The notes under the pieces are model-generated. The model did no database searches. It saw only the letters and a program-made list of their open reading frames with translations, and was not told the origin of the DNA. From Escherichia phage vB_EcoP_PW8, in sequence record PQ362703.1: DNA of 64,000 nt. The stretch is one strand, 5' to 3'. Position 1 is the stretch's first letter, and each line of letters opens with the position of its first letter. This document shows positions 12,453-60,672 of the stretch, in pieces. The translations under genes and the position numbers were made by a program.

Positions 12453-13268
12453 ATGTACTCATCTATTGAACATCAGAAGCAGCTCGAAAAACTATTCAAT
12501 AAAAATCAGCTCTTGCCTCGCATGAGGAAGGAATTCGAGGACTCCGAAGAAATTGACTTTAAGGCTTTTGCTGCCTATTTAGAAATTGATTATAAGCTGC
12601 TCATTGATGCAATGGTGCAGATTGCCCTACATAAACGTGCTGACATCCAAACTATGATTGGCTCTCTCATGAGTCATTCAGATGATGCTCAGTATATCGC
12701 TGACTGTCTGTATAAGATGGCAGAGAATGACTGCTTCAACTATGACCCTACCATCGACAAGTTCGGTGTTATTTATGAGATTAGTGAAGATGTACAGATG
12801 GAACTGGAAGCATTCCAGTACCCATTGCCTATCGTAAGTGCTCCTAAGCCTGTTAAGTGTAACCGTGATACTGGTTACTACGAAAGCAGAGGTAGCATCA
12901 TCCTCAAGAAGAACCATCATGAGATGGATGTCTGTCTTGACCATATCAACCGTATGAACAATCAACGTCTCTGCATTAACTGGGACGTTGCTAACTATGT
13001 AAAAGACTCCCGTCCTAACATGGATAAACCCAAAGAGGGTGAAACCCGTCAGGACTACGAGAAGCGTGTTAAAGCCTTTGAGAAGTACAGCCGTACAGCT
13101 AAGGAAGTAATGGAGCTAGTGACCAAAGAAGGTAATAACTTCTCCTTGGCTCATCGTTACGATAAGAGAGGACGCACTTACTGTTCCGGATATCATATAT
13201 CCTATCAAGGCACTTCCTATAACAAAGCTGTTATTGAATTTGCAGACAAAGAACTAGTAGAGGACTAA
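12453..13268 (+). CDS. phage RNA polymerase II small subunit (T7-like RNAP N-terminal part)
   Basis: 271 aa, immediately upstream of the catalytic subunit. Assignment by size and synteny with the N4 two-gene RNAP II. Confidence 0.45.
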   Translation: MYSSIEHQKQLEKLFNKNQLLPRMRKEFEDSEEIDFKAFAAYLEIDYKLLIDAMVQIALHKRADIQTMIGSLMSHSDDAQYIADCLYKMAENDCFNYDPTIDKFGVIYEISEDVQMELEAFQYPLPIVSAPKPVKCNRDTGYYESRGSIILKKNHHEMDVCLDHINRMNNQRLCINWDVANYVKDSRPNMDKPKEGETRQDYEKRVKAFEKYSRTAKEVMELVTKEGNNFSLAHRYDKRGRTYCSGYHISYQGTSYNKAVIEFADKELVED

Positions 13269-13774
13269 TGAAACCAACTCAAGCAGAGTTGATGGAACTA
13301 ATCGACTATGGCCCAGTGAATGGAACATTTCATTGGACTCATAGTCCATTGGTGTACATCAACGTAAGAGGTAAGGAGACTGGCTTATCAGGCTCCAGAG
13401 GACATCGAAAGATTGTCATTAATAAACAGGAATACAAGGCTCATCACGTAGCCTGGTGTATCATGACTGGTTCATGGCCTGAACAGGTGGATCATAATGA
13501 TACAAACCGGGCCAACAACCGTTGGAATAACCTACGTGAGGCAACTCATGCACAGAACATGTGCAATAGAACCATGAACAAGAATAACACTTCTGGATTT
13601 AAAGGTGTGCGTATTCGTAATGGTAAATACTTAGCCCAAATTCAAGTCAAAGGCACCAAAATAGCATTAGGTTCATTCACTGATCCAGTGGATGCTGCTA
13701 AGGCTTATGATGCTGCCGCAATTAAATACTTTGGTGAGTTCGCCAAAACAAACAAAGAACTCAATAACTATTAA
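13268..13774 (+). CDS. HNH homing endonuclease with AP2-like DNA-binding domain
   Basis: 168 aa. HNH-type signature (HHVAW...DHND...N) plus AP2-like C-terminus (SGFKGV...YGEFAKTN). ATG overlaps upstream stop (TAATG). Confidence 0.8.
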   Translation: MKPTQAELMELIDYGPVNGTFHWTHSPLVYINVRGKETGLSGSRGHRKIVINKQEYKAHHVAWCIMTGSWPEQVDHNDTNRANNRWNNLREATHAQNMCNRTMNKNNTSGFKGVRIRNGKYLAQIQVKGTKIALGSFTDPVDAAKAYDAAAIKYFGEFAKTNKELNNY

Positions 13775-13791: not shown

Positions 13792-15036
13792 GTGGCTCAA
13801 GACGCTAAGGAACATAAAATGCAACTGTTAACCGCTCGTGAATACCTGAAAGTAGATATCGCCAATTCTTATGGCTTGGATAAAAAGACATGGGATGAAC
13901 GTATTGCTTGGTTTGATGAGAACGAAGCTAACCTGCTTAATCTGGTAGATGAAGCTGAAGATTCTGCTCTGTTCTTTGCTGGTGTAAACGCATGGAAAGA
14001 TATGAAAGCAGGTAAACCTATTGGTTATGCCGTAGCTCTTGATGCTACATCATCTGGCTTGCAGTTACTGGCCTGCCTGACTGGTGACCGTTCTGCTGCT
14101 GAACTGTGTAACGTAGTTAACTACATGGGCGAGAATGGTAAGCCATTACGTCGTGATGCTTATACAGTCATCTATCACAAGATGCTGGACATCCTTGGTG
14201 AAGCATCCCGTATTAAACGTAGTGACACTAAGCAGGCAGTTATGACTGCATTCTATGGTTCAGAAGCCAAGCCTAAAGAAGTATTCGGTGAAGGTATTCG
14301 TCTCAAGACTTTTGAGAATGTAATGGAAACTGTTGCTAGTGGTCCTTGGGCACTTAACAAGTTCTTACTGCAATGTGGTAATCCAGATGCCAACCGTTAT
14401 GTATGGGTACTTCCTGACAACTTCCACGCTGTCATTAAGGTCATGATTCCAGAAGTACAGACTGTTAACTTCTTAGGTAAGCCATTTGACATCACTCGTA
14501 TGGTTCAAGGTACTGAAGAGAAGACCCGTATGCTCTCTGCTAACATCACCCACTCTATTGATGGAATGGTGGTACGTGAGATGCTGCGTCGTTGTAACTT
14601 CGACATGAACCAGATGAGCTATGTTAAGGCTCTTTGTGAGGGAACTGGTGAATACACGGTAGGTTCTGATGATAATTATGAAATGGTTAATACACTATGG
14701 ACTAGTTATGAGAAGTCTGGATTCCTGTCTACCCGTATCTTTGATTATCTGGACTCAGAAACCATTGCATTGGTAGATACAGATGTAATCTTAGCTATGC
14801 TCAATACTATGCCTAAGAAGCCATTCCCTGTAATGACTGTACATGACTGCTTCCGTTGCCATCCTAACTACGGTAATGACCTACGTCGTCAGTACAATCA
14901 GATTCTGTCCGACATTGCTAAGAGTGACCTACTGGGTTTCATCCTGTCTCAGGTACTAGGACAAGAGTTCTCTGCTGGTAAGCTGGATGACAGCCTCTGG
15001 CAGGACATTCTTGAAACAGACTATGCGTTGAGTTAA
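13792..15036 (+). CDS. phage RNA polymerase II catalytic subunit (T7-like single-subunit RNAP)
   Basis: 414 aa. T7 RNAP-like motif A (ALDATSSGLQLLAC), motif B (RSDTKQAVMTAFYGS) and motif C (VHDCF). Confidence 0.75.
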   Translation: MAQDAKEHKMQLLTAREYLKVDIANSYGLDKKTWDERIAWFDENEANLLNLVDEAEDSALFFAGVNAWKDMKAGKPIGYAVALDATSSGLQLLACLTGDRSAAELCNVVNYMGENGKPLRRDAYTVIYHKMLDILGEASRIKRSDTKQAVMTAFYGSEAKPKEVFGEGIRLKTFENVMETVASGPWALNKFLLQCGNPDANRYVWVLPDNFHAVIKVMIPEVQTVNFLGKPFDITRMVQGTEEKTRMLSANITHSIDGMVVREMLRRCNFDMNQMSYVKALCEGTGEYTVGSDDNYEMVNTLWTSYEKSGFLSTRIFDYLDSETIALVDTDVILAMLNTMPKKPFPVMTVHDCFRCHPNYGNDLRRQYNQILSDIAKSDLLGFILSQVLGQEFSAGKLDDSLWQDILETDYALS

Positions 15037-31602: not shown

Positions 31603-34182
31603 ATGCGTTATATCACCTCTCAAGACACGGGTAAGTATCCTATTGCTATCCTCGGTCATCAAATCCGAAGGGAGGAGATGATTAAAACCTACCTGCTGCC
31701 TAATGACTTAAGCATGGAAGATTTCATCTTCATTGAACTTCATTCTGCCCCTGGCAAGAAGAAGACTCCTGCAAGGGAAATTAAAGAGTTCATACAGCAG
31801 GAACTGCAACAAGTACTGGATGATGCAGAGACTCAATACATTATCTGTACTGATTCTGATTACTTCAAAATACTGACCAAAGAAGCTAAAGCAGAGGCTA
31901 ATCTCGGCTACGTTTGTGATTCAGTATGGGGTAAACAGAAGGTTATCTATGCACCTAGCTACAGGCAGGTCTTTTATGACCCACCTGTAGTGAAAGCCAA
32001 GATTGCTCAGGGCATGGATGCATTACTTAACCACATTCGTGGACAGTATGCCGAACCAGGTCAGGGAATCATTGAGTTTGAGGCTTACCCGGATACTCCA
32101 GAGAAGATTAAAGCCTGGTTAGACCAATTGCTTGAGATGAATAAGCCTCTGGCTATAGACATTGAAGCATTTGGTTTAAAGCACTATAACGCCGGTATAG
32201 GAACAATTACGTTCTGTTGGAGTAAGACACAGGGCATAGCCTTTAATGTGGACTACGAGCCAATTCCTGGAGCTACAGAAGCACCTTATGGGCGTATCAA
32301 CAGAAATGATGTTGTTCGAAATCTTCTGCGTGAGTTCTTCATTAAGTACACCCAACGGCAGATGTATCACAACATTAGCTATGACGTGTATGTGCTTATC
32401 TATCAGTTATTCATGGATAACCTGATTGATACAGAAGGCTTACTGTATGGCATGGAAATCATGCTACGTAACTGGGACTGTACTAAGTTAATCACCTACC
32501 TGGCTACTAACAGTTGCGCTGGTAATCACCTTAGTCTGAAAGACCAGGCTCAGGAGTATGCTGGTAACTATGCTCAGGATGATATTAAAGACATCCGTCT
32601 TATTCCTAATGAGCAATTGTTACGCTACAACCTCATTGACGGCTTGTGTACCTGGTACACCTATGAGAAGCACTGGGATACTCTCATTGCTGACGACCAG
32701 CTAGATGTTTACAACAACATCTTTAAGCCAGCATGTGAAGACATCATCCAGATGCAGTTAACCGGTATGCCCATGAATATGGATACCGTTAACCAAGTAG
32801 CTAAAGAGATGGAAACTGACAGGAACCAGGCCCTGAAAACTATTCGTGAGTCCAAGCTCATGAAGAACTTCACCCTGATGCTTCGTCAGGAATGGGTAGA
32901 CGATAAGAATGCTAAGCTCAAGAAGAAGCAAGTAACACTTGCTGACTGTGACATAGAGTTTAATCCTAACTCAGGTCCACAATTACAAAAGCTGTTATTT
33001 GATTATATTGGCTTACCGGTTCTTGGTCTTACTAAGAACAAGCAACCTGCTACTGATGGTGACACCATTAAAGCACTGCGAACACATACGCAGAGTGAAG
33101 ATGTTAAGGAACTGCTCAATGCACTTATCGACTATAAGCTCGTGGATAAGATTATCACTAGCTTCATCCCGGCTTTCAGGAATGCACAACCAGGACCGGA
33201 TGGCTGGCACTATCTATTCGGCAACCTCAATCTGGGGGGAACGGTTTCTGGTAGATTATCTGCCTCCGAGCCAAACCTGCAAACCATACCGTCTGGCTCC
33301 AAATATGCCAAGAAGATTAAAAAATGCTTCGAAGCCCCACCAGGTTGGATCTTTTGTGGACTGGACTTTGCGAGCCTTGAAGACCGTATCTCAGCTTTAA
33401 CTACTAAAGACCCACAGAAGCTTAAGGTATATACCGATGGCTATGATGGACACAGTCTACGTGCATATGCTTACTTTGGTGAGCAGATGCCAGACATAGA
33501 GGACACAGTAGAATCCATTAACTCCATTCAGCACAAATACAAATCATTACGTAGTGACTCGAAGGCTCCAACCTTCCTGCTTACCTATGGTGGTACGTAT
33601 ATGGGCTTAATGAAAAACTGTGGCTTCTCAGAAGAGAAAGCTAAAACAACAGAGAAACGTTATCACGATCTCTATGTAGTTAGTGATATGTGGGTTCAGG
33701 CTAAGCTAGATGAAGCTGCCAAAACTGGTTATGTTACTGCCGCATTCGGTTTGAGAGTGCGTACTCCTTTACTGGCTCAGGTTTTACGTGGGACATGTAA
33801 GACTCCGTATGAAGCAGAAGCAGAAGGCAGAACTGCTGGTAATGCTTTAGGGCAAAGCTGGTGTCTACTGAATAACCGTGCTGGTTCAGAATTTATGCGT
33901 AAAGTCAGAGCCAGTGAGTTCAGGTTAGATATACGTCCTAGTATTCATATCCATGATGCTCAGTACTTCATGATTCGTGACAACATGGATACCTTGCAGT
34001 TCACAAACAAGCACTTGGTTGAAGCCGTTAACTGGCAAGACCATCCTGATATTGCTCATTCAGAGGTTGGCTTGGGTGGGGAACTATCCTTGTTTTACCC
34101 AACGTGGGCTAACGAGATTGAAATTCCAAATCACGCTACCCCAGAAGAAGTTCATCAAATAATTCAAAAGGCATTCTCATGA
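31603..34182 (+). CDS. family A DNA polymerase with 3'-5' exonuclease domain
   Basis: 859 aa. Exo I (LAIDIEAFGL), Pol A motif A (GLDFASLEDRI), motif B (RSDSKAPTFLLTYGG), motif C (IHIHDAQ). Confidence 0.85.
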   Translation: MRYITSQDTGKYPIAILGHQIRREEMIKTYLLPNDLSMEDFIFIELHSAPGKKKTPAREIKEFIQQELQQVLDDAETQYIICTDSDYFKILTKEAKAEANLGYVCDSVWGKQKVIYAPSYRQVFYDPPVVKAKIAQGMDALLNHIRGQYAEPGQGIIEFEAYPDTPEKIKAWLDQLLEMNKPLAIDIEAFGLKHYNAGIGTITFCWSKTQGIAFNVDYEPIPGATEAPYGRINRNDVVRNLLREFFIKYTQRQMYHNISYDVYVLIYQLFMDNLIDTEGLLYGMEIMLRNWDCTKLITYLATNSCAGNHLSLKDQAQEYAGNYAQDDIKDIRLIPNEQLLRYNLIDGLCTWYTYEKHWDTLIADDQLDVYNNIFKPACEDIIQMQLTGMPMNMDTVNQVAKEMETDRNQALKTIRESKLMKNFTLMLRQEWVDDKNAKLKKKQVTLADCDIEFNPNSGPQLQKLLFDYIGLPVLGLTKNKQPATDGDTIKALRTHTQSEDVKELLNALIDYKLVDKIITSFIPAFRNAQPGPDGWHYLFGNLNLGGTVSGRLSASEPNLQTIPSGSKYAKKIKKCFEAPPGWIFCGLDFASLEDRISALTTKDPQKLKVYTDGYDGHSLRAYAYFGEQMPDIEDTVESINSIQHKYKSLRSDSKAPTFLLTYGGTYMGLMKNCGFSEEKAKTTEKRYHDLYVVSDMWVQAKLDEAAKTGYVTAAFGLRVRTPLLAQVLRGTCKTPYEAEAEGRTAGNALGQSWCLLNNRAGSEFMRKVRASEFRLDIRPSIHIHDAQYFMIRDNMDTLQFTNKHLVEAVNWQDHPDIAHSEVGLGGELSLFYPTWANEIEIPNHATPEEVHQIIQKAFS

Positions 34183-34484
34183 CCAAAAGTACTAAAGAAA
34201 CTGTAGTCAGAAAATATCATTGGATGGTAGCAGCACAAGTAGTATTCCAGCTTCCTAAAGTGGACGATGGTTCCCTGCTTACCATGAACACAATGCTGCT
34301 CACTGACGAACCTTATGTGACTTATAAAGATTTGGCCCGTGCTAATCATTCCCTGAAGATTAGTCTGGACCAGCGTTTTGATACCTCGGTTGACCTGAAA
34401 GACATTGTTTATCTGTCCCTTAGCAACCTGGGTCTGATGTCCGAACCAGAGTTCCAGGCAAACATGATTCCTAAGGATAAATAA
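34179..34484 (+). CDS. hypothetical protein
   Basis: 101-aa ORF. Confidence 0.35.
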   Translation: MTKSTKETVVRKYHWMVAAQVVFQLPKVDDGSLLTMNTMLLTDEPYVTYKDLARANHSLKISLDQRFDTSVDLKDIVYLSLSNLGLMSEPEFQANMIPKDK

Positions 34485-34960
34485 TGGCTAAGCTCTCCGG
34501 TGGATTAAATAACTGGTATGTAGTGCCAGTTAAGCACCCTCAACGGAAAGAGCAAGAGCCATACCAAGCAGAGTGTGAGGATATTATCCAAGCACTGGGC
34601 ATGACCTTCGATGAAGGTTGTGCCTTTAAAGCTCTATGGCGAAATGCTGCTGCCCGTATGGGTAATGGTAAACCTGGTAATACTGCTGTTTACGATGCAG
34701 AGAAGCTGGTTCATTATGCTAATCGTATTCTTGCTAAGGAGAAGTTAGCTAGTGAGTTATTTCCGGATCCTGCTACGAATGTAAATACCGTTGGTAGTTA
34801 TTGGCATCATACAAACAATGGTAAACCTCACTTCACTAAAGAATTTTCATTCATTGAGATTGTTTATAAAGATGAACGAGATGAAATTTACTCGTATAAC
34901 TTCAATCAGCTAAGTGAAATTAAGTGGAACCGGGTTCACAGATACAGGATTACTTACTAA
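34484..34960 (+). CDS. hypothetical protein
   Basis: 158-aa ORF. Confidence 0.4.
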   Translation: MAKLSGGLNNWYVVPVKHPQRKEQEPYQAECEDIIQALGMTFDEGCAFKALWRNAAARMGNGKPGNTAVYDAEKLVHYANRILAKEKLASELFPDPATNVNTVGSYWHHTNNGKPHFTKEFSFIEIVYKDERDEIYSYNFNQLSEIKWNRVHRYRITY

Positions 34961-35025
34961 TGAAGATAACCAACAATCATGATGTCTCACTGGCCCTGGC
35001 TGTATGGCTATTACATGATGAGTAA
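34960..35025 (+). pseudogene. 21-codon duplicate of the exonuclease N-terminus (homing-endonuclease insertion footprint)
   Basis: ATG overlapping the upstream stop encodes MKITNNHDVSLALAVWLLHDE, matching MKLTNKHDVSLALAVWLVTDD at 35526 with mostly third-position differences. Confidence 0.5.
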
Positions 35026-35031
35026 CTAATT

Positions 35032-35529
35032 ATGAAACAGAGGATTGCCCATGACAGGCTTTTACAGCTTGTTAGTTATGACCCTATTTCCGGAATTTTT
35101 ACTCGTAGGAATACTGGGAAGGTATCCGGTTACCTAATGAAGAGTGGCTACACTCAGCTCCGTGTGGATAGCGTGTTGTACTATGGGCATATCCTTGCAT
35201 GGTTCTATGTGCATGGCGTATGGCCTACGGATAGGATTGACCATAAGGACAATATACGCCATCACAACTGGATAGATAACCTCAGAGAAGCGACCCACAA
35301 GCAGAATAACCAGAGTGCTGTTTTATCTAAAACAAACACATCTGGATTTAAGGGGGTATCCTTTTCAAAGAATTTAGGTAAATACAGAGCAACTATTTGG
35401 GTTAACAGCAAACCAATTACATTAGGTTTCACAGATGACCCAAGAGAAGCTGCTGTTCTCTATGATGAAGCTGCTATAACTCATTATGGTGAGTTTGCTA
35501 AAACTAATAAGCAATTGGGACTGTTATGA
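35032..35529 (+). CDS. HNH homing endonuclease with AP2-like domain, paralog of the 13268 gene
   Basis: 165 aa. HILAWFYVHG...DHKDN...N, then SGFKGV and YGEFAKTNKQL, closely matching the 13268 protein. Confidence 0.8.
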   Translation: MKQRIAHDRLLQLVSYDPISGIFTRRNTGKVSGYLMKSGYTQLRVDSVLYYGHILAWFYVHGVWPTDRIDHKDNIRHHNWIDNLREATHKQNNQSAVLSKTNTSGFKGVSFSKNLGKYRATIWVNSKPITLGFTDDPREAAVLYDEAAITHYGEFAKTNKQLGLL

Positions 35530-36506
35530 AACTTACCAACAAACACGACGTTAGTCTTGCACTAGCGGTATGGCTTGTAACGGATGATTATGATTACGTA
35601 GATAACCCCAAATATCTATCCGTTACTACACTGCTTAAACCCATTAAGCAAATCGTCATGAAGCATCGTGTAGATTTAAGTGACCAGTCAATTGATGTTA
35701 TGGATTTCGTCTCCACATCAATGGGTACTGGTTTACATGATTCTATCGAGAAAGCCTGGAAGCTGGGTCATAAGACTGCATTGAAGAAGCTAGGTTATCC
35801 TCAGCGTGTAATTGATGCAGTAGTCATTAACCCAACCAAGGAAGACTTTGATGCTAACCCTGACCTTATCCCAATCTACATTGAACAACGTGGAACCAAG
35901 GTAGTTAAGGGTTGGACTATCGGTGGTAAGTTCGACATCGTAACAGAAGGTCTGCTGCAAGATTTTAAGTCTACCTCAACCTATTCCTGGGTTGCTGGTT
36001 CCCGTGATGATGAACACAAGATGCAAGGTAGCTTGTACCGTTGGATTCACAACGACATCATTACCGAGGATGTAATTCGCATTAACTACATCTTCACTGA
36101 CTTCATGAAGCACATGGCTAATAGCAATCCGAACTATCCTGCTAATCGTATTATGCACAAGGATATTCCGTTGCTATCTGTCGAGAAGACTGAACGTTGG
36201 GTAGAAGAGAAGATTCACCTCATTGAGAAGTACTGGAATACACCTGAAGAGGAAATTCCTGAGTGTACTGACGAGGAGTTGTGGCGAACAGAACCACAGT
36301 TCAAGTACTTCTCTGATGCTTCTAAGGTAGATGTACCTGGAGCCAGAAGTACCAAAAACTTTGACGATATGGCATCTGCTCGTATCTTCATGGCTGAAAA
36401 AGGTGGCAAGGGTGCTATCAAGGTCGTGGAGGGGCAGGTTAAGCGTTGTCTGTACTGCCCTGTCGCATCCATTTGCAAACAAAGAGAGAGATATTTTCCA
36501 TCATGA
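35526..36506 (+). CDS. PD-(D/E)XK exonuclease, RecB/Cas4-like, with C-terminal Cys cluster
   Basis: 326 aa. Nuclease core FDIVTEGLLQDFKS and terminal CLYCPVASIC cysteines. Confidence 0.55.
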   Translation: MKLTNKHDVSLALAVWLVTDDYDYVDNPKYLSVTTLLKPIKQIVMKHRVDLSDQSIDVMDFVSTSMGTGLHDSIEKAWKLGHKTALKKLGYPQRVIDAVVINPTKEDFDANPDLIPIYIEQRGTKVVKGWTIGGKFDIVTEGLLQDFKSTSTYSWVAGSRDDEHKMQGSLYRWIHNDIITEDVIRINYIFTDFMKHMANSNPNYPANRIMHKDIPLLSVEKTERWVEEKIHLIEKYWNTPEEEIPECTDEELWRTEPQFKYFSDASKVDVPGARSTKNFDDMASARIFMAEKGGKGAIKVVEGQVKRCLYCPVASICKQRERYFPS

Positions 36507-38656
36507 GTATTGACCTGACCGGAGTCACTCACCACGCTGCAATTGAAGAAATTGTAGACGTGCTGTGTAACAAGACACAAAACAACGACAGAGGATTCTT
36601 CCGTGTCGAAGTAGCCTACTTCCTGGCTAAAATGGCATCCTGCATGGGTGCAACCATTGTCACTAAAGACCGTGGTGACTTACCAGTCAACATTTACGCT
36701 ATGGCATTAGCAACGTCTGGCTTCGGTAAAGGTCACTCGGTAAATATTATTGAAGACGGGTTCATGACTGGCTTCCGTAAACGCTTTATGGAAGACACCA
36801 TGCCCGTCATTGCAAATGACCGTTTATGGAAGATTGCTAACGAACGTGCTGCTCGTCAGGGTACAGACCAGAATGATGAGTTTGATAAAGTTGAAGCAGA
36901 GTATAAACGTGCTGGGGCATACCCGTTTACGTTTGACTCAGGTACTCCACCAGCAGTTAAACAACTACGTCATAAACTGTTAATGGCTGGGTGTGGTTCA
37001 ATCAACCTTCAGATTGATGAAATTGGTTCAAACCTGCTGGCTAACACAGACGTACTAACCTTATTCCTGGAGCTATATGACCAGGGTAAGGTTAAGCAGA
37101 AGCTAACCAAGAACACTGCTGAAAGCGTTCGTGGTGAAGAACTGGATGGTAAGACTCCAGCTAACCTATTGCTGTTCGGTACACCAAGTAAGCTACTGGA
37201 TGGGGGTCAGACTGAAGACCAGTTCTATGACTTCCTTGATACGGGGTATGCACGTCGTTGTCTATTTGCCATTGGGCATTTAGACAAACGAGCACATGCA
37301 ACAATGTCTCCTGAAGAAATCTACCGTAACCTCATTAAGCAGGATAACGTTCAGTCTCTAGGTAAGTGGGCTAACCACTTTCATAGTTTGGCTGACCCAA
37401 ACCTGTTCGGTTTTAAGATGGTTGTGGAAGATGCAGTGGGAATTGCTTTGATTACTTACAAAATTGATTGTGAGAAGAAAGCAGAAGCTATGGCTGACCA
37501 CGAAGAGATTCGTAAAGCTGAAATGTCTCACCGTTACTTCAAAGCTCTTAAACTGGCAGGTGCATTGGCGTTTGTTGACCAGAGTTCCTTCATTGAGATG
37601 TCTCATCTTAAACAAGCAATTCTGCTTGTAGAGGAATCTGGGGCAGCATTCCAGGGTATTCTCAATCGTGAGAAAGCCTATGTGAAGCTGGCTAAGTACA
37701 TTGCTTCTGTAGGTAAAGAAGTGACTCATGCTGATTTACTTGAGTCATTACCGTTCTATAAGAGTGGCAATGCAGCTCGTAATGAGATGATGACCCTTGC
37801 TACAGCATGGGGCTACAAACAGCACATCATCATTAAGAAAACCTTCAACGAAGGCATTGAATTTTTCCGTGGGGAAACTCTGAAAGAAACTGACATCAAT
37901 GAGATCATAGTGGCATATAGTGATAGCTTTGCCTATGACTACATTGGTGAACGTGTACCGTTCGACCAGTTGCATGTATTAACCCAAGCTCCTGGTATGC
38001 ACTGGGTAAACCATCACATGAAGAATGGGCATCGTTCTGAAGAGAACGTTATTCCAGGATTTAACATGATTGTTATTGACTGTGATGGTGGAGTACCACT
38101 GCATACGTGCCATGAACTGATGAAGGAATATAAGTTCATGACCTATACCACTAAACGTCATTCCGATGAAGAGAACCGATTCCGACTGATTATTCCAATG
38201 AACTATGAGTTACACCTAGACACCGAGGAATACAAAGAGTTCATGAATAACGTTATGTCTTGGCTACCGTTCGAAACGGATGAATCTGCTAACCAACGAG
38301 CCAAGAAATGGATGTCCTGTGAGACTGGTTCTTATCATTACAATCTTGAAGCAAATCTGTTAGACGTGCGTGACTTTATTCCTCGTACTAGTAAGAACGA
38401 GCAGTTCCAGAACCAGATGAAGGAAGTACAGTCGTTGGATAGTCTGGAGCGTTGGTTCGCTAGTCGTATTGCTACCGGTAATCGTAATAATCAAATGATT
38501 AAGTACGCACTGGCATTGGTTGACAGTGGTTGGGATTTTGCCCAAGTACAGCAAGCCGTACACTCATTCAATAAGAAACTGGCTAATCCATTGCCAGATG
38601 ATGAATTGAATGCAACCGTAATGGTCACCGTGGCTAAACGCTTCGCTGGCAAGTAA
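36503..38656 (+). CDS. DNA primase (primase-polymerase type with C-terminal PriCT-like domain)
   Basis: ATG 36503 overlaps upstream stop (ATGA). Acidic motif VIDCDGG and PriCT-like end (GNRNNQMIKYALALVDSGW...PLPDDEL). Confidence 0.55.
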   Translation: MSIDLTGVTHHAAIEEIVDVLCNKTQNNDRGFFRVEVAYFLAKMASCMGATIVTKDRGDLPVNIYAMALATSGFGKGHSVNIIEDGFMTGFRKRFMEDTMPVIANDRLWKIANERAARQGTDQNDEFDKVEAEYKRAGAYPFTFDSGTPPAVKQLRHKLLMAGCGSINLQIDEIGSNLLANTDVLTLFLELYDQGKVKQKLTKNTAESVRGEELDGKTPANLLLFGTPSKLLDGGQTEDQFYDFLDTGYARRCLFAIGHLDKRAHATMSPEEIYRNLIKQDNVQSLGKWANHFHSLADPNLFGFKMVVEDAVGIALITYKIDCEKKAEAMADHEEIRKAEMSHRYFKALKLAGALAFVDQSSFIEMSHLKQAILLVEESGAAFQGILNREKAYVKLAKYIASVGKEVTHADLLESLPFYKSGNAARNEMMTLATAWGYKQHIIIKKTFNEGIEFFRGETLKETDINEIIVAYSDSFAYDYIGERVPFDQLHVLTQAPGMHWVNHHMKNGHRSEENVIPGFNMIVIDCDGGVPLHTCHELMKEYKFMTYTTKRHSDEENRFRLIIPMNYELHLDTEEYKEFMNNVMSWLPFETDESANQRAKKWMSCETGSYHYNLEANLLDVRDFIPRTSKNEQFQNQMKEVQSLDSLERWFASRIATGNRNNQMIKYALALVDSGWDFAQVQQAVHSFNKKLANPLPDDELNATVMVTVAKRFAGK

Positions 38657-54100: not shown

Positions 54101-55507
54101 CAGAGAAGCACCAGCCAGGGTAGTACGTACAGCAGGACCAACGGCAGCACCAGCAGCCTTAACAGTTGCACCAGGAGCTTGAGCAACTCCAGCAGAACCA
54201 AAGCCATACAATGCACCAAGACCAGTTTGTTCACCCACACCTTTAAGCAAATCACGCTTAGCATCTACATTACCCTGAATTGCCTTGTTCTGTGCAAACT
54301 GACTTGTACCAGACTGGATACCTTCTTCCACAGTTTCACGGAGCAAGTTAGAACCAGCACCAGCCAGAGAACCTACCTTAAGTGGGTTAAGTTCAAACTT
54401 AGATACCAGTGGGCCAGTAAGAGCAGCAACCGGAGCAGTTAGGCCAGCAGCAGTGATACCCGTTTCAGATGCAGTCTGACGACGAGCTTCTTCAGGAGTT
54501 AAGCCGTCTTTAATGTGTTGTTGGTATACAGGAGATTTAGCAGCCAGTTCACTGAATGGCATTTCCATAATTTCATTAGCAGTCTGTTGGTATGCACCAC
54601 CAGCTTCCATACCACCAATTGCTATAGCAGGTGCAGCAATACGCCCGGTAGCTAATGCAGTACGTGCAGGACGCGAACCTAACTCAGCAGCTAAGGTAAT
54701 ACCCTTAACAGCTTTATCACCACCTACCATTACTTTACCGAGTGCAGATACACCACGGATTAATGGACCACCAGTAAACAGAGAACCAACACCTTCAGCA
54801 ATACCATCTGTAGCAGCCATGTCATTGGATAAGGTGTTAGCAACAGAATCATAAGCATCACGACCAATACGAGACAGAGAAGCAACGAGTTCACTTTCCC
54901 CTTTAGCAATATCCTGCTTATAGAGTTTCTCATTTTCCTGTGCAGAGATTACATTCTGGTTCTGTACTACATTACGACGAGCATTCAATGCATCAGACTG
55001 TAGGTTGTGTACACCTTTATTCAACCAGTCAAGACTGGAAGCAATGGATGCCCCGGCATTATCATTGACCAAGCCTGTGCCAAGAGCAGCAATGCCCCCA
55101 AGGGTATTAGCAACACCAAGACCAACACCAGAAAGGGTATCGCCAAATGCTTCTGCGTTAGTACGTTGTTTAGATAAGTCCTGGCGTACAGCATCAGCAG
55201 CATTAGCTCGACTATTAAGAATCTGTAGACCTTGCTCATTACCATACTTATTAATGATTTCTAATGGGGAGGCCTGAGTGAAATCTGCCTGAAGTGAACC
55301 TGGTTCAAATGCACCAGCACCTAAGTTACCTGCACGACCTGCCTGTAATTGGTAAGCGTTCTGTGGGGTTAATTGGAAAGGGTTTTGCCCTTGTTCAGCT
55401 TGCTTCCGGGAGGTTGCAGTAGAGACATCGACTTGCTTAGCATTAGTGATGCTGTCTGCGAAACCTGCCAGACGGTCAAATGTTGACATAGCATGTTTCC
55501 TGTTCAA
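45131..55507 (-). CDS. virion-encapsidated RNA polymerase (N4 vRNAP-like)
   Basis: Single 3458-aa ORF. Central region has T7-like catalytic motifs (YVEADGVTNGPINAMVL and KIFDGMNIG). Confidence 0.9.
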   Translation of the reverse strand: MNRKHAMSTFDRLAGFADSITNAKQVDVSTATSRKQAEQGQNPFQLTPQNAYQLQAGRAGNLGAGAFEPGSLQADFTQASPLEIINKYGNEQGLQILNSRANAADAVRQDLSKQRTNAEAFGDTLSGVGLGVANTLGGIAALGTGLVNDNAGASIASSLDWLNKGVHNLQSDALNARRNVVQNQNVISAQENEKLYKQDIAKGESELVASLSRIGRDAYDSVANTLSNDMAATDGIAEGVGSLFTGGPLIRGVSALGKVMVGGDKAVKGITLAAELGSRPARTALATGRIAAPAIAIGGMEAGGAYQQTANEIMEMPFSELAAKSPVYQQHIKDGLTPEEARRQTASETGITAAGLTAPVAALTGPLVSKFELNPLKVGSLAGAGSNLLRETVEEGIQSGTSQFAQNKAIQGNVDAKRDLLKGVGEQTGLGALYGFGSAGVAQAPGATVKAAGAAVGPAVRTTLAGASLAGNVLAKAASPITNILVQRGEEVAKRNEQASPVSDATVNAAAQEATAQAEQAQATVQEAVDAMDITPEEKAAATQYAADLTQVMKFDPVELEQASPAIREAVSGSTNRVEAIQKMADLVNTAEDPNVQMEAAIQMYDNIMSMDSFINRDPGALANLEQGSPAANIVDQFSGLMANVQNTPKVLRAFRAIHSMIQEQAEAGKLKATEEANQAQANSIAMAADMSPEVLDADSVNMVLKHASEGKITLGNRQRAALQSAAALLQGAREFDAKAEELGLRPQDIVSKQIKTDESRSNEGQYSALQHAKRIRSAYNSGNFDLASAYLDDFMKFAQHMQNKVGALNEHLISGNADKNKSVHYQALTSSREWVRSRTGLGVNPYDTKSVKFAQQVGLEAKTVADIANALATAYPELNVSHVKVIPLDSRLNKPAAQVVKEFRQGNLDAAQSQQTNEPVNQVDDTPVTKQEPVTPTVQTKPSVSEAVKTEPTIKESKPQAVKEPENQSEKQDVTLTNEDNTQEIAETKTEMEAVFHVYNNDKTPNQFLKAFSLPEEPKSRTIGSESPLTDVKKALSSAARFEAFTQKENNALTGDVIKRYQDLFAFGETLKTTLSDRLAKFLANKNVGKRFAEGTEANRWVGGKLLNIVEKDGDTFKFNDQLLETAVLAGLQWRLTATQNAAVKDMKDVAAITGVEASLLPEGILADFENAQTLVEATNSLAQKIESYWGLNRNPNAPLGYTKGIPMAMATEILSSLIEMGEVKESMLDVSEIDPESNKTIGLYTIEKLDDNDAINKFPTAIEEAVLLEPEEKLYLGDDIPSVAQTQLRNPAVRNTPEQKAALKAEQATEFRVHMPMVNFYEALGRDNILELMGAGALNPELLNVNTAKSLEGKNLSVSMAYDSLFGVINQIKEQENGLDTPIHYGYNMTRVGRMQMLGKNNPQSSKLVREAILPTFSTIDLSNENSQTFSDFQLGLAQALGIKVHKMSREVMSDELTKALEGKLKPAVDMMVEFDKSGHLPTNAVDILKTSLGSDKSFVALMALMEYARYLNSDDRTNFNTPLYVEADGVTNGPINAMVLMTGGKFTPDWIKNTAKGGLFFGKAGKTMNEHHSHEDSVDLYEASTNGLQQALNELRNTYRNNVPVTNQMKHLQKLMDLFIKDFNLNEDGTLDLKRGIAKNPLTITIYGSGARGIAGKMVSAITDTIYERFSDVLQARAADPSISPAMAMFGKEAASEAAAQAMLDTFLTSMEALTGNVPVMRKGELSIQQVDGALTGKLDPQKFTVSGNALKNLQENMLHLFVEPMRTGIRNTVGEGLMYSTENLQKATQIQSLVLQDMFQQAVQAKLAEKEKDPTWKKGDFLTQKELNEIQNSLAPLAPMIETGSQTFYIAGSENTDVANQVLATNLDDRMRVPMSIYAPSQAGVAGIPFMTIGTGDGMMMQTLSTMKGAPKNTLKIFDGMNIGINDITDASRKANEAVYTSWQGNPIKNVYDSFAKFMKNVDFSKLSDETKQAIAKSALEYDQREGATDDLLRVGAEQIERNLRNIALGVDIRHKVMDQVQVTVDQMAAVGAPYVNNGKISLEGLTVDQQVAKLNELFDAELNKRRDAVRAAKAEPVKEVPAIELVGHVLKSGVRLLSNTAIAKLAKEMSPEQQAVLKEIQKSLAAKDYKVVYGTPSQLDAYAIEKNIARPAPEDIEAAEAGNAYGWTNFEDKTIYLVTPSLETLVHELVHASTFESVLAHYEGTPNEAVQNIEDLMNQFRALDVKDESPAVREAYADALNTINGHLSNGFIEPAMAKAAALNEYMAWGLTNRELINKQKKTTALKTMVQAVYEAIKRLVFGRKKAPANADDMFSGLLFNSAVVMRGQAPTAAVAKDTTLFHNKAYGDNTRLEELGKTFDKLITDYIGSEPVQQVIRKGKFSDAVVNATKVTRDVQAHGFTMNMQEQRLFTNIVAALATEAAVNPAAMARAQEYYTHVTKNLTVESFMANPDSTNPADRYYAQQKFDTIMGANNIEFDAQGRSSLLPTFVGLAMVSEEVRKVLAEIPVMKADKKSGNTVDAMLTNIGTAAMASLNARVAGDTKATNVQEGMDALAQTIMQTSLNAESFYDSVATPTGNAIDRANQYLVDSIDVLSTRALEGAREVAANTKNPLVKGAAHAAQLVAAIATEKNGSIVAEGVMAAMNQGKVWQPFHDLVNDIVGRTKSNASVYDLIKAVRAQVQADRQQFREHLPTAIASKFSRRLTNEEWKAMHTGMGKTDLAVLRDTMSLGEIRDLLTDQKIVDREVNKLEADLQKQAGRNWPLISRKSKQLAQYMINGTVGNNLLRNATAISRLLGERKTTRSVVDVAQLDKLITLYALEAMGKTDREMLSSLAQTEIEGMDFATSYLVGQRKDEMAKAKSDSRATLNQYKGYIPSETKQGVNLIVAEDSQFADLIEKSYVRLGTYQGSSANRGPARSYYFAPVQAQAPFSQGILQNVRNTAGGVDLGTGFTMGTMVAGRITDKPSVDRITKALARGERGNEPLLPVYDANGNVVAYEQSIDPNMLKHIEGENHLARAIGVWRGRQVEEAKAQRFNDMLIENLHSMYENDLKMSASNKSQYVNLLGSKLDPVTADALKLMNSETRQKAESLFGPGELWVRRDMLNDALGYRAASVGDAWSGNSRWSPETLDTFKKAMLGVFGNRAYKYVMGGENLVQNLVKEAKTLIVVKSVVVPAVNFLANLYQMVARGVPVKNIAKSIPQKTAEINQYLKSRLRQVDAEAELRAATNPNQIRKLKAEIQSITDSHKRLSIWPLLEAGEFSSIADAGIGRDDILITEGKLHEYMEKLADKLPKSVRNAGRYALITKDTALFQGIQKTVEYSDFIAKAIIYDELTQRKGKTREEALGRVTEEFINYDRLPGRFRGYMESVGLMWFYNFKIRSAKVAVSMIRNNPVHAAMAMLAPTPTMFGNVGLPIQDNIFSIAAQGNLGYSFGFGQGLRAHTLNPWLNLTN

Positions 55508-58017: not shown

Positions 58018-60672
58018 TTAAACTAGGTCGGTATTAAGGGTCATGTCAGAGTAGTTACCTATCATGTCTAGAGACAAGTCAGCTATATCTGAACCAGTCA
58101 TGAGAGTACGTGATAAGAATGAATCCAGTGACTCCATTGACACGAATTGCATAGGGTCAATTACACCCTGCCCAGCAGTACCAAACATTTCTTCATACTG
58201 CTTATTGATTGCCATCATATCAGTGTTGTACTGCTGCATTACTTTCTCTGCTTTCTGAATAGTAGCAGCCGTAGATGCATTAATATACTGACTAATACCA
58301 TTACCTACTGAACTGGTAAGCTGCATGATGTTTTGTGCATTCATCATCTCACCTGCTAGGGTGGATAGGGATGTACCAGTAGACAAAGCAGTACCAACAT
58401 TCATAGCTACCATTGAAGCAATAGCTGCAATAATAAAGCCTAATTTATCACCGAACAGTGCAGTGGATACTTTTGTAATAATGGATACCAGAATCATTCC
58501 AGCAATAGCGTTTGCTACAGCACCAACTATCACGGCAGCTAATCCAACAAAGCCAAGTGATGCACCAACTGCACCATATGCTCCAAGTATGCCTGCACCA
58601 CCAGCACCCATAGTGAATACGGATACAACGACAGCAACTACAACAACCACAATCTTAAAAGCAGATGTTTGATACCACTTCTTCTTAACCTTCTTATATG
58701 AGTTCATCACTAAGTAGGAGCAAGCAGTGGATAGCTGAGTACTTCGAACCAGTGACATTGAACGGTAGATGTTAGTATGTAGTGGAATAATGAATCCGCT
58801 CTCCTCTGCATCACCCATTGCTTCGGCGACATCAATGTGCACTGACTTATTCTTATATACCCTGTTGTTGTGGTTTAGGCCCAGTATTCTAAGTTTACGG
58901 TAGGTATTATTACCATCCTGCCAAAGTAACTCATACTCCTGCATTGAATAGAATGTGTACGTTACCTCAAGTTTCTTAGAAGAGCCGGAGTTACGGGAGG
59001 TACGCATATTCTTACGAGTAAGGGTTATATCCCCTGCATACCTGGATCGAAGCTGCCCCTGTTTAGCACCAGACCATGCTTGCCCTGAGTGGGTAGTTTC
59101 AAATACATAGTTCCAGCCAATAGTCATGTCATACTTGTAATGCTTATTACTATGTACCCTAAATTCTCGCTTAGGTATAACAGGATATTCAGGTAGTGGT
59201 GGCGGTGTTCCAATAGTATGCCCTCCAGTCATATTCCACCATTTTACATATGCATCAACTGCATCATTAGCTGCCTGATAACCTGCAATTACTGCTTCCA
59301 AAGTTGGGTAGGTTGGGTCAGGTGGAAATGCTTCTGTAGCCATCTGAAAGAAACGGTAGATGTATTCCTTAGCAGTATCCTCTGGAGAATTAAGAGATAC
59401 ACCGAATGTGCCATAAATGTATTGGATATCACCTATGTCCTTATTCTTCTTAAGCTCAGTTATTACATTATTGAGTTTGCCACCAGTAGCTTTATAAAGA
59501 GCCTTTTTACAGTGAGGGTAGATTGGGTCATTCTCTACCCATTGCTTATCATTCCTGATTGGAATGAATGGGTAGAATCGATTATCAGTAGCTTCAGTCT
59601 CAAACAGTGAATCCAGTGCAACGTTACCAGAGTTCTGCTTATAGATAAGCATCTTAGGTGTACCAACAGCAGTCATCTCTGTATCAGTACGAGTAGTCTG
59701 GGATGAATACTTACGAACCAGTGTCTCTGTGGTTGTAGTGATTGTATCGGTACGAGTAACTCCACCACCTAAATCAACTACATTAGTAGTTACAGAAGTA
59801 CTAGACTGAACCTCACCAAACTTTTTATGAGTCATTACCCGGTCAGATACAACTACAGTCACATCATTAGGTTTCTCAGTAAACCCTCTGCGGTAAACCT
59901 TAACGTAAGAGTTCCAGTTATCTACACTTGGTTCAGTGACTGTACTATCCTCATCCGGTCTGTCATCAGAGTAAACAGAATGAGTATGTATAGTCTTAGT
60001 AAGGTTAGTTGTATTAGCTGTTGTATCACTTGATACAGTATTCCATAGCAAAGTAGAAGGTAAGTCACTCTCGCTATCATAAACAGTAGTCGGTCCTACT
60101 ACCGGTGGATTGATAGTAGGAGATTTATAGAAAGAGTAGTCAACATAGAGATACAAAGCACCTGGTTCAAAGTTAGTTGGTGTGAATTTAATAGTAGAAC
60201 CTCCATCCAAGGAGGTCATAGTAATTTCATTGGTATCTTCATCAATGTCTATGTCGAATCGTTCCATGATTCGACTCGGAGCATTCTCATAAAGATACTG
60301 GTCACACCATTGCTCAAAATCAGCAAAGCCAATCTCTGCTGCCTGAACATAAACAGATTCTCCAGCAGGGGGCGTAATTTGACCCTCTATAACAGTAGGG
60401 TCAATCTTAGCCAATACACCCAATGAAGAACCAGCCATACCTATTTTTGAATCATAGTGGTTCTTACTCCAGCTGGAGAACAATCGCATACGAATACCAG
60501 GTCCATTCAGATAACTATCAGAGATAGTGTCTGCCATAGTGAATCCTGTATTGGAAACAATGTTACCAATGACTACAGTCTTCATATAGTTAGGACGTTT
60601 GTGTATGTCCCCTGCCATATTGTAGACAGAGGATGCTACGTATACTTTGGTCTTACTACTGAATAAGCCCAT
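58018..60672 (-). CDS. large virion protein with C-terminal hydrophobic Gly-rich segment
   Basis: 884 aa. About 100 residues of Gly/Ala/Val-rich hydrophobic sequence near the C-terminus. Confidence 0.45.
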   Translation of the reverse strand: MGLFSSKTKVYVASSVYNMAGDIHKRPNYMKTVVIGNIVSNTGFTMADTISDSYLNGPGIRMRLFSSWSKNHYDSKIGMAGSSLGVLAKIDPTVIEGQITPPAGESVYVQAAEIGFADFEQWCDQYLYENAPSRIMERFDIDIDEDTNEITMTSLDGGSTIKFTPTNFEPGALYLYVDYSFYKSPTINPPVVGPTTVYDSESDLPSTLLWNTVSSDTTANTTNLTKTIHTHSVYSDDRPDEDSTVTEPSVDNWNSYVKVYRRGFTEKPNDVTVVVSDRVMTHKKFGEVQSSTSVTTNVVDLGGGVTRTDTITTTTETLVRKYSSQTTRTDTEMTAVGTPKMLIYKQNSGNVALDSLFETEATDNRFYPFIPIRNDKQWVENDPIYPHCKKALYKATGGKLNNVITELKKNKDIGDIQYIYGTFGVSLNSPEDTAKEYIYRFFQMATEAFPPDPTYPTLEAVIAGYQAANDAVDAYVKWWNMTGGHTIGTPPPLPEYPVIPKREFRVHSNKHYKYDMTIGWNYVFETTHSGQAWSGAKQGQLRSRYAGDITLTRKNMRTSRNSGSSKKLEVTYTFYSMQEYELLWQDGNNTYRKLRILGLNHNNRVYKNKSVHIDVAEAMGDAEESGFIIPLHTNIYRSMSLVRSTQLSTACSYLVMNSYKKVKKKWYQTSAFKIVVVVVAVVVSVFTMGAGGAGILGAYGAVGASLGFVGLAAVIVGAVANAIAGMILVSIITKVSTALFGDKLGFIIAAIASMVAMNVGTALSTGTSLSTLAGEMMNAQNIMQLTSSVGNGISQYINASTAATIQKAEKVMQQYNTDMMAINKQYEEMFGTAGQGVIDPMQFVSMESLDSFLSRTLMTGSDIADLSLDMIGNYSDMTLNTDLV

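Follow-up and report, generated by a model that had tools for sequence, protein, structure and literature searches.

A putative gene-start-replacement cassette: an HNH-AP2 endonuclease gene lodged within the 5' end of an exonuclease gene in G7C-like coliphages

The 64,000-nucleotide stretch of DNA analysed here (the window) derives from a G7C-like N4-type coliphage (Gamaleyavirus), in which a free-standing homing endonuclease gene of the HNH-AP2 type is flanked by two versions of the start of the neighbouring exonuclease gene. We consider it likely that this arrangement reflects homing by replacement of a gene start, wherein a unit inserted near the 5' end of the coding sequence of gp42, the exonuclease gene, carries along the endonuclease ORF with a stop codon ahead of it and, behind it, a substitute start for the gene that it enters. 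Such a mobile unit would leave the exonuclease unsplit and rebuild it at full length, with neither an intron nor an intein being needed, and the displaced native start would stay behind as a 21-codon leader ORF.

All the genes concerned lie on the plus strand. The upstream neighbour, a gp41 homologue (34484..34960), ends in a TAA that overlaps the ATG of a mini-ORF (TAATG). This mini-ORF (34960..35025; 21 codons and a TAA) encodes MKITNNHDVSLALAVWLLHDE and is without annotation in all GenBank records inspected. Its TAA, together with a 6-nucleotide spacer (CTAATT; jointly 35023..35031), ends it 6 nt before the ATG of the HNH gene (35032..35529), a homologue of G7C gp41.1 coding for 165 aa. The TGA of the HNH gene in turn overlaps, as ATGA, the start codon of the complete exonuclease gene (35526..36506), a homologue of N4 gp42 of the PD-(D/E)XK type, which starts MKLTNKHDVSLALAVWLVTDD and whose 326 aa equal the length seen in HNH-less relatives. 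The exonuclease stop overlaps the primase start in a further ATGA at 36503-36506. The coordinates and peptides given for 34960-35600 in a preliminary description of this DNA were reproduced exactly.

That description had pointed to the likeness between the mini-ORF directly upstream of the HNH gene and the exonuclease start, and to the different codons used for much the same protein; both points hold up. The mini-ORF and the first 63 nt of the exonuclease gene are identical at 43/63 nt and 16/21 aa, with 10 of the 14 degenerate codons for shared residues differing between them, including a TCA/AGT serine switch. This pair is the best short match in a six-frame self-comparison of the window (E 2e-11), and analytically ~6e-10 matches with 16/21 or more identities are expected in the whole window; a chance origin of the likeness is excluded. 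A second self-match, on the minus strand (58654-58451 vs 54230-54162, E 7.6e-9), is out of frame with long annotated ORFs and was taken as compositional.

The relation of the two copies was read from 8 phages with the HNH gene and at least 12 HNH-less Gamaleyaviruses. In the latter, which include St11Ph5, PhAPEC5/7, ST4, PE007, nithesis, phiG17 and ZQ2, gp41 is followed directly by gp42, which starts MKITNNHDVSLALAVWLLHDE and continues into YDY. The first 63 nt of these native gp42 alleles match the mini-ORF at 59-61/63 nt (2/19 silent sites differ) and run on in frame into ...YDYVDNPKYLS, and the TAATG overlap between the gp41 stop and the mini-ORF ATG in the window is that between the gp41 stop and the exonuclease ATG in the relatives. 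In contrast, the start of the window's exonuclease matches the native alleles at 41-44/63 nt and 16/21 aa. By its sequence, the mini-ORF is the original start of the exonuclease gene, now displaced, and it was not seen as an independent conserved gene in the related genomes compared. The earlier account of a recoded duplicate thus stands as to the pair itself, but not as to its polarity: the empty-site relatives identify the upstream mini-ORF as native and the beginning of the functional exonuclease gene as the diverged, recoded copy.

These relatives, having an exact empty site, also bear out the proposed insertion of the HNH gene near the exonuclease start. The segment that they lack is 566 bp in the window (35023..35588, beginning with the TAA of the mini-ORF), with a 2-nt ambiguity in its boundaries, TA being common to both junctions. 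Whereas native alleles read ...CATGATGAG directly followed by TATGATTAC..., in the window ...CATGATGAG leads into TAACTAATT... and the insert ends in GATGAT before TATGATTAC. The insertion point is the codon 21/22 boundary in the conserved motif WLLHDE/YDY, and presence or absence at this one site involves a single design of 563-566 bp in all eight HNH-containing phages, which are 8 of about 60 sampled relatives. The 3' part of the insert is the substitute start (35526..35588), an ATG plus 21 codons in frame with resident codon 22, which reads MKLTN[K/N]HDVSLALAVWLVTDD in 8/8 of these phages. The cassette occurs on different backgrounds: the C-terminal half of gp41 is a swappable module of three unrelated types, all of them seen beside the HNH cassette and at least two also found without it. 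Likewise, the mini-ORF polymorphisms of HNH-containing phages all segregate in native gp42 alleles, the G7C mini-ORF being the native 5' end of L017; the exception is a 3-nt junction deletion in EC1-UPM and 24-32N, which changes the peptide (D20G, E21 lost).

The carried start differs from the native one far more than its surroundings do. Silent-site divergence of the window from native alleles is 10/14 (71%) over codons 1-21, 8/17 (47%) over codons 22-38 and 24/268 (9%) over codons 39-326, and N4 differs from native alleles at 12/18 silent sites, which calibrates the between-genus level. Thus, the substitute start and the next 17 codons in the window show between-genus-level divergence from native, amid flanks that are about 90% identical. 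This gradient suggests that the carried tract is deeply diverged and probably foreign. Its right edge varies, being farthest out in the window, intermediate in Bp4/PD38 and nearest in ECBP1/G7C. The extended tract over codons 22-38 (35589..35639) is seen in the window only and has 8 silent differences from every relative compared, two of which (GAT, AAC) are common to Bp4/PD38. On the junction side, CTA TTA CAT GAT GAG is respelled as CTT GTA ACG GAT GAT, yielding L18V, H19T and E21D. The first 21-38 gp42 codons of HNH-containing phages are not DNA orthologues of those of their relatives, and recombination and phylogenetic analyses that include them can be distorted.

Profile comparisons support an HNH catalytic domain and a C-terminal AP2 DNA-binding domain in the endonuclease. 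Pfam HNH_3 scores 36.9 bits on the window protein (cut-off 24.8) and matches 10/10 family members, and Pfam AP2 matches 7/10 (best E 6.6e-9), with the single window sequence at 19.3 bits falling under the AP2 cut-off of 33.3. The family profile matches the HNH domain of I-HmuI (1u3e, E 2e-4) and the AP2 domains of the plant proteins WRI1 (E 1e-14), TEM1 and ERF1, and the D70-H71...N79...N83...N92 columns are invariant in the HNH family alignment. In all eight phages the ORF is intact, with the HNH residues conserved and 93-99% aa identity.

The preliminary description had also suggested that recoding may guard against self-cleavage. We infer that it is the carried start that would confer such target-site immunity, because the target would be put together again if the copy were not recoded, because His19, which adjoins the junction, is replaced in 4/4 sampled HNH-adjacent lineages, and because certain HNH-less alleles keep the recoded tract. 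Of the unique HNH-adjacent N-termini, 5/5 have another residue in place of His19, as against 18/54 of those without HNH (Fisher p 0.007), a test that spans four lineages, is not corrected for phylogeny and sets them against a group of which one third is also without His19. The HNH-less alleles in question, those of K57alpha1.2 and NAN33P5, have a chimeric native/recoded 5' end, MKITNNHDVSLALAVWLVTDD. Their derivation by simple repeat recombination is awkward, as the crossover falls in a 2-nt identity, and co-conversion without transfer of the endonuclease would be an equal alternative.

In the homing process that we propose, the enzyme would cleave alleles without the HNH gene in or close to codons 17-22, and the 566 bp would be copied in when the break is repaired on the template of an HNH-containing genome. 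Owing to the respelling beside the junction, the restored gene would not present the target again, and the 68% identity between the repeats would also disfavour recombinational loss. As for the cassette itself, it may have arisen through repair of a break from a donor with the HNH-then-exonuclease order that other N4-like phages show, with homologous recombination in the YDY region forming the right end and illegitimate joining at the break the left end. This order is found in HNH relatives (45-56% identity) that lie directly upstream of the exonuclease gene, without a mini-ORF, in Burkholderia phage HN01, Salmonella phage As2 and the metagenomic L086/88/89. In a comparison of L088 with L077 the HNH gene sits exactly before the exonuclease ATG, and a local diverged tract would not stand out against the overall divergence of the pair (about 80-85%).

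As to provenance, the carried start might instead have originated in situ, without import of foreign exonuclease sequence. The 5' end would have been duplicated locally at HNH insertion, and the downstream copy, no longer exchanging with native alleles, would have diverged within the lineage because self-cleavage and recombination between the repeats were selected against; we regard this as rather unlikely. It accords with the donor searches: a donor with an LVTDD-type exonuclease start, an upstream HNH gene and no mini-ORF was not found in phage records, IMG/VR or metagenomes, nor was the recoded start found there outside the HNH-containing phages and the two HNH-less derivatives. Specifically, no donor came up when the recoded tract was compared with phage records by blastn, a degenerate pattern of the recoded peptide matched ECBP1 alone in IMG/VR, 80 IMG/VR exonuclease loci that were inspected contained no donor and had the recoded start only in HNH-containing phages, and metagenome contigs searched for HNH relatives gave 45% identity at best and no donor. 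The recoded peptide is also nearest to Gamaleyavirus-type starts, at 16/21, and an endonuclease-linked tract could diverge while recombination homogenises its flanks. Against such an origin, silent sites are near saturation over 21 codons, and over 17 more in the window, which is well beyond the vicinity of the junction; the TCA/AGT switch requires non-synonymous intermediates; the carried starts are 55-62/63 nt identical among themselves as against 43/63 to native; and the donor-type gene order does exist in other N4-like phages.

Other explanations concern the present state of the locus. The HNH gene might no longer be an active homing element, being inactive, domesticated or moved by ordinary recombination, with the duplicate a frozen scar that has no current role in immunity. 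Its presence in only 8 of about 60 relatives would fit this, and general recombination in a mosaic region could place it beside different gp41 modules. The intact and conserved ORF speaks against inactivity, as does the mini-ORF haplotype, which follows native backgrounds to within a few nucleotides of the junction, and the variable-length recoded tracts and HNH-less recoded alleles look like products of co-conversion; we regard the inactive state as rather unlikely. We give still less credence to the mini-ORF being a small gene or leader peptide selected for its own product rather than a relic. It is intact in 8/8 HNH-containing phages with silent substitutions, and its sole indel is in frame and leaves the stop still 6 nt before the HNH ATG. 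Yet all its silent variants also occur in functional native gp42 alleles, probably having come with recipient genomes in which selection had already acted on the whole exonuclease, and selection on the peptide, as suggested by the silent-only pattern, was dropped for this reason. Moreover, the sole private change is the one that alters the peptide, the sequence in phages without HNH is plainly codons 1-21 of gp42, and a role in translational coupling explains the conserved frame and stop equally well. Finally, in relatives the adjacent DNA polymerase gene does hold an intron that contains an HNH, which brings up a group I intron or intein interrupting the exonuclease gene, with the mini-ORF as exon 1. 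This can be discounted almost entirely: the downstream gene already encodes codons 1-21, leaving nothing to splice, the TAA at 35023-35025 and a frame change separate the ORFs, and an Rfam scan of 34000-36700 at E up to 1 found no intron or other RNA family, one chance snoRNA match aside. An intein is ruled out by that TAA, by the HNH gene's own start and stop and by the exonuclease's own ATG.

On the preferred reading of a carried gene start, the displaced native start may have acquired a use. Translation could be coupled from gp41 (TAATG) through the mini-ORF (stop, 6 nt), HNH (ATGA) and exonuclease (ATGA) to primase; this coupling is read from spacing alone, and both the HNH and the exonuclease start are preceded by weak Shine-Dalgarno-like sequences. 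The distance of 6 nt from the mini-ORF stop to the HNH ATG is kept in 8/8 HNH-containing phages, including the two with the in-frame junction deletion.

If this reading is true, the carried respelled codons would have two functions, restoring the gene that the cassette has entered and conferring target-site immunity, and the old start would find a new use as a translated leader that supplies the endonuclease with ribosomes; a selfish nuclease could in this way settle in a coding region that looks essential without cost to its host gene. Phage genomes could then be scanned for such elements by the signature of an unannotated mini-ORF that repeats the opening codons of a neighbour. The missing annotation in every record inspected is a practical warning. 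Sequenced, culturable coliphages hold three allele states: a native one predicted to be susceptible, an endonuclease-containing one with the substitute start, and a recoded one without the endonuclease. The host on record for St11Ph5 is E. coli 4s; the G7C record lists none, and we take its host to be E. coli 4s as well. If the two share this host, experiments could directly address homing, translational coupling and the immunity that respelling would give.

A description of the mini-ORF or the duplication in G7C-like phages was not found in the literature covered, which did not include the original G7C paper. We raise, tentatively, the possibility that self-contained gene-start replacement cassettes can be added to introns and inteins as a third general means by which homing endonucleases inhabit conserved coding sequence. 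Integrating elements, such as e14 and phage 21 in icd and prophages in tRNA genes, also restore the gene that they interrupt, by carrying a diverged substitute gene end and leaving a pseudo-copy of the native end, and they use an integrase and att sites. The phage cassette, in contrast, is without an integrase, and break-and-repair homing is proposed for it.

Among free-standing homing endonuclease genes of the T4 type, intronless homing is known for SegF, SegG and MobE (PMC2988022, PMC2790892). As in those cases, the endonuclease gene here adjoins its predicted target gene and is present or absent among relatives, and the co-conversion of flanks and immunity through sequence differences of the carrier reported there may be likened to what we predict for the cassette. 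However, the T4 cases are intergenic or divide a gene so that two polypeptides result, as with mobE in Aeh1 nrdA and mobA in gene 60, and PMC2988022 and PMC2790892 describe none that brings along a replacement for the start of a gene. In ICP1 and other phages, small ORFs beside homing endonuclease genes are fragments of neighbouring essential genes, proposed as recombination substrates, and an HNH-plus-AP2 architecture has also been described (PMC10055350 / PMC10448857). Those islands involve other phages and endonuclease genes than here, and the parts of these two sources that we consulted do not describe for the ICP1 system the design of stop, endonuclease and recoded start, the proof from empty sites or recoded HNH-less alleles.

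The closest parallel is offered by the fungal mitochondrial mORFs that carry a foreign gene terminus, found in Allomyces macrogynus atp6 and in Glomus atp6, atp9, cox2 and nad3 (PMC3630166). Of the features that mark these, the phage locus has the in-frame carried end and the retained native end; a foreign donor of the carried end was not found in phage records, IMG/VR or metagenomes. In both systems an endonuclease ORF brings a diverged gene end that is joined in frame, leaving the gene whole, and the displaced native end stays alongside, near-identical to that of relatives; the DNA identity of the carried end is about 64-81% in the fungal mORFs and 68% in the phage, with the protein conserved in both. 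They differ in that the fungal elements (PMC3630166) replace the 3' (C-terminal) end and encode LAGLIDADG or GIY-YIG enzymes in organelles, whereas the phage cassette replaces the 5' end and start codon, encodes an HNH-AP2 enzyme and resides in a lytic phage, where the displaced piece is a translatable leader ORF in a predicted coupled operon.

The region matches Escherichia phage ECBP1 at 96.5% identity and about 60 further G7C-like N4-type coliphages (Gamaleyavirus, Schitoviridae) at 86-96%. It comprises the genes for DNA polymerase gp39 (31603-34182, + strand), gp40 (34179-34484) and gp41 (34484-34960), the 21-codon mini-ORF (34960-35025), an HNH gene homologous to G7C gp41.1 (35032-35529), and the genes for the PD-(D/E)XK exonuclease gp42 (35526-36506) and primase gp43 (from 36503). 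The polymerase gene is unbroken in the window (859 aa); the PhAPEC5 and PhAPEC7 records annotate an intron with an HNH gene within it, and it is annotated as two pieces in phiG17, ST4 and Bp4, with an HNH gene at the split only in phiG17. The mini-ORF is annotated in none of the GenBank records inspected. The preliminary description, exact in its sequences and coordinates, had reported a high protein match with respelled codons between the mini-ORF and the exonuclease start, and this is what we found: the mini-ORF and exonuclease codons 1-21 share 16/21 residues and 43/63 nucleotides. Where a degenerate codon specifies the same residue in both, the spelling differs in 10 of 14 cases, one of them a serine switched between TCA and AGT. 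No other short match scores as high when the window is compared with itself in all six frames (E 2e-11), and about 6e-10 matches of this quality are expected by chance. A separate 21-aa match between 58451-58654 (-) and 54162-54230 (-) (67% identity, E 7.6e-9), whose two segments are not in frame with the long ORFs annotated at those places, is probably compositional.

The history of the duplicate emerges from relatives lacking this HNH gene, namely St11Ph5, PhAPEC5, PhAPEC7, ST4, PE007, nithesis, phiG17, ZQ2, IME11 and two IMG/VR genomes. In every one of these gp41 runs straight into gp42, its stop overlapping the exonuclease start, and the exonuclease begins MKITNNHDVSLALAVWLLHDE-YDYVDNPKYLS. 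The first 63 nucleotides of these native genes match the window mini-ORF at 59-61 positions and the window exonuclease start at only 41-44. By this alignment the mini-ORF is the native 5' end, now displaced, and the exonuclease gene currently starts with the diverged copy. Hence, while the proposed duplicate and a homing endonuclease insertion near the exonuclease start are both upheld, the mini-ORF is not the recoded copy. The insert spans 566 bp (35023-35588, its boundaries ambiguous through a shared TA) and consists of TAA plus CTAATT, the HNH ORF, and ATG plus 21 substitute codons in frame with resident codon 22 (TAT GAT TAC); the rebuilt exonuclease gene has 326 codons, as in relatives.

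The HNH protein matches Pfam HNH_3 above cut-off and AP2 weakly, and a profile of ten homologues matches I-HmuI (E 2e-4) and plant AP2 domains (WRI1, E 1e-14), with HNH_3 found in 10/10 and AP2 in 7/10 family members. This domain pairing is the HNH-AP2 homing endonuclease architecture described in PMC10055350. No intron RNA was detected around the gene, and an intein is ruled out by the stop codons. Three other lineages, Burkholderia phage HN01, Salmonella phage As2 and the metagenomic phages L086, L088 and L089, have a related HNH gene (45-56% identity) immediately upstream of this exonuclease and no mini-ORF. Comparison of L088 with its HNH-less relative L077 puts the gene precisely at the boundary of intergenic region and exonuclease ATG. 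This is the donor-type arrangement. A second HNH-AP2 paralogue in the window (13268-13774, +; 168 aa, 55% identical over 103 aa) is flanked by ORFs 12453-13268 and 13792-15036, which by N4 gp15/gp16 would encode the two subunits of RNA polymerase II; a search for a duplicated gene fragment next to this paralogue found none. Yet another related HNH gene occupies exactly the exonuclease/primase junction, where stop and start overlap in the window (ATGA, 36503-36506), in PhAPEC5 (L007 4029-4544), ZQ2 (L013 2495-3010), Moo19 (L011 2504-3019), EC1-UPM (L098 3598-4086) and HN01 (L012 3969-4481), so two homing endonuclease genes can bracket the exonuclease.

The WLLHDEYDY motif is widely conserved among N4-like exonucleases. 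Its His19 codon is replaced in 4/4 HNH-adjacent lineages (LVTDD, LLADD, AMFDE, LSTDE); His19 occurs in 0/5 unique HNH-adjacent N-termini versus 36/54 without an upstream HNH gene (Fisher p 0.007, uncorrected for phylogeny). Together with the insertion point at the codon 21/22 boundary and the changes at 6 of the 15 nucleotides immediately to its left in the substitute copy, this loss suggests a putative recognition or cleavage site spanning codons 17-22. Since a natively spelled copy would rebuild the cassette's own target, respelling would be the simplest source of immunity. We infer that a native genome broken at codon 21/22 was repaired from a donor with the HNH-then-exonuclease order. Recombination in the conserved YDY region would have formed the right end and illegitimate joining at the break the left, trapping the native 63 nucleotides upstream. 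With ordinary homology on both sides, from gp41 and the mini-ORF to the left and from exonuclease codon 22 onward to the right, such a cassette could home among Gamaleyaviruses. The start/stop spacing (TAATG overlap from gp41 to mini-ORF, stop and 6 nt to HNH, ATGA overlaps into exonuclease and primase) suggests that all five may be coupled in translation; Shine-Dalgarno-like sequences are weak before the HNH and exonuclease starts.

Silent-site divergence, counted as differing codons among degenerate same-residue codons against a native allele, is 10/14 in exonuclease codons 1-21, 8/17 in codons 22-38 of the window, 24/268 in codons 39-326 and 2/19 in the mini-ORF; the N4 exonuclease start, a calibration from a different genus, gives 12/18. 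The substitute start therefore looks foreign or very old. No donor was found in IMG/VR, where ECBP1 alone carries the exact recoded peptide, among 80 exonuclease loci (at best 45/63 nucleotides identical) or among metagenome relatives of the HNH protein (at most 45% identity); a less likely alternative to foreign import is that this endonuclease-linked tract was long isolated within the lineage. The full set of eight silent changes in codons 22-38 (to ~35639) is absent from ECBP1, G7C and other HNH-bearing phages, and the first two (GAT, AAC) also occur in Bp4, PD38 and the HNH-less pSb-1. The right edge of the diverged tract thus varies among carriers, as co-conversion tracts do.

The same structure occurs in eight phages (the window, ECBP1, Bp4, PD38, EC1-UPM, G7C, Mimir124 and 24-32N); in PD38 and EC1-UPM the HNH gene is annotated from an internal start, ~35 codons short. 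The cassette adjoins three unrelated gp41 C-terminal modules, two of which (ECBP1 and phiG17 types) are also found without it. Apart from a junction deletion, all mini-ORF polymorphisms in carriers occur in native exonuclease alleles of HNH-less phages, so the mini-ORF looks recipient-derived to within a few nucleotides of the junction; that of G7C is identical to the native start in L017. This sharing also takes away what had looked like evidence of selection on the peptide. Only EC1-UPM (L098 2061-2130) and 24-32N (L100 2058-2127) have a private change, the in-frame loss of 3 nt at the junction; together with substitutions it turns the mini-ORF end CATGATGAGTAACTAATT into CATGGGTAACTAGTT and alters the peptide, while the stop still lies 6 nt ahead of the HNH start. 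Entry of the cassette into several backgrounds, or recombination into them, would be expected to leave such a recipient-type mini-ORF; the carriers share the cassette's design, which has moved. The gp41 C-terminal half (34740-34960) itself exists in at least three unrelated versions in close relatives (ECBP1/PE007, G7C and phiG17/Mimir124 types), with an additional St11Ph5/PhAPEC7 variant, and the module-swap boundary lies directly upstream of the HNH site. In pSb-1 (L004 1585-1870; exonuclease annotated at 873 nt), PD205, HK2, E20, F22 and Bas96, among several relatives covering only ~64-68% of the query in three pieces, the gp41 region is much shorter, which adds to the rearrangements at this junction.

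Klebsiella phage K57alpha1.2 and Gamaleyavirus NAN33P5 lack the HNH gene and carry an exonuclease start that is native at nucleotides 1-9 and recoded, G7C-type, from 12 to 63 (MKITNNHDVSLALAVWLVTDD). These alleles arose either by HNH loss through recombination between the two repeats or by break repair in which the recoded tract was copied and the endonuclease was not; we keep both origins because the crossover falls within a 2-nt identity. With either, three kinds of allele (native, endonuclease-plus, and recoded but endonuclease-less) coexist in the population, the classes that a homing cycle would be expected to produce. In the K57alpha1.2 record (OY979416.1; L101 1-3135) the gp41/exonuclease region is labelled as portal protein, spanin, endolysin and holin genes, all flagged pseudogenes and placed on the opposite strand; the annotation seems to be shifted against the sequence.

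The duplicate is thus confirmed and the insertion reading supported, with its polarity corrected and the immunity role inferred. The locus is valuable chiefly as a clean case that lends itself to experiment. We found no description of the mini-ORF in G7C-like phages in the part of the literature covered. T4-type free-standing endonuclease genes are either intergenic or divide a gene so that it yields two polypeptides (PMC2988022), and essential-gene fragments beside phage endonuclease genes are noted for ICP1-type HEG islands (PMC10055350). In the nearest described parallel, fungal mitochondrial mORFs bring along a foreign C-terminal end for atp6, atp9, cox2 or nad3 while the native end stays next to it, and the identity figures are very similar to those of the cassette (PMC3630166). 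Unlike these, the phage cassette carries a 5' end with its start codon, encodes an HNH-AP2 enzyme and resides in a lytic phage.
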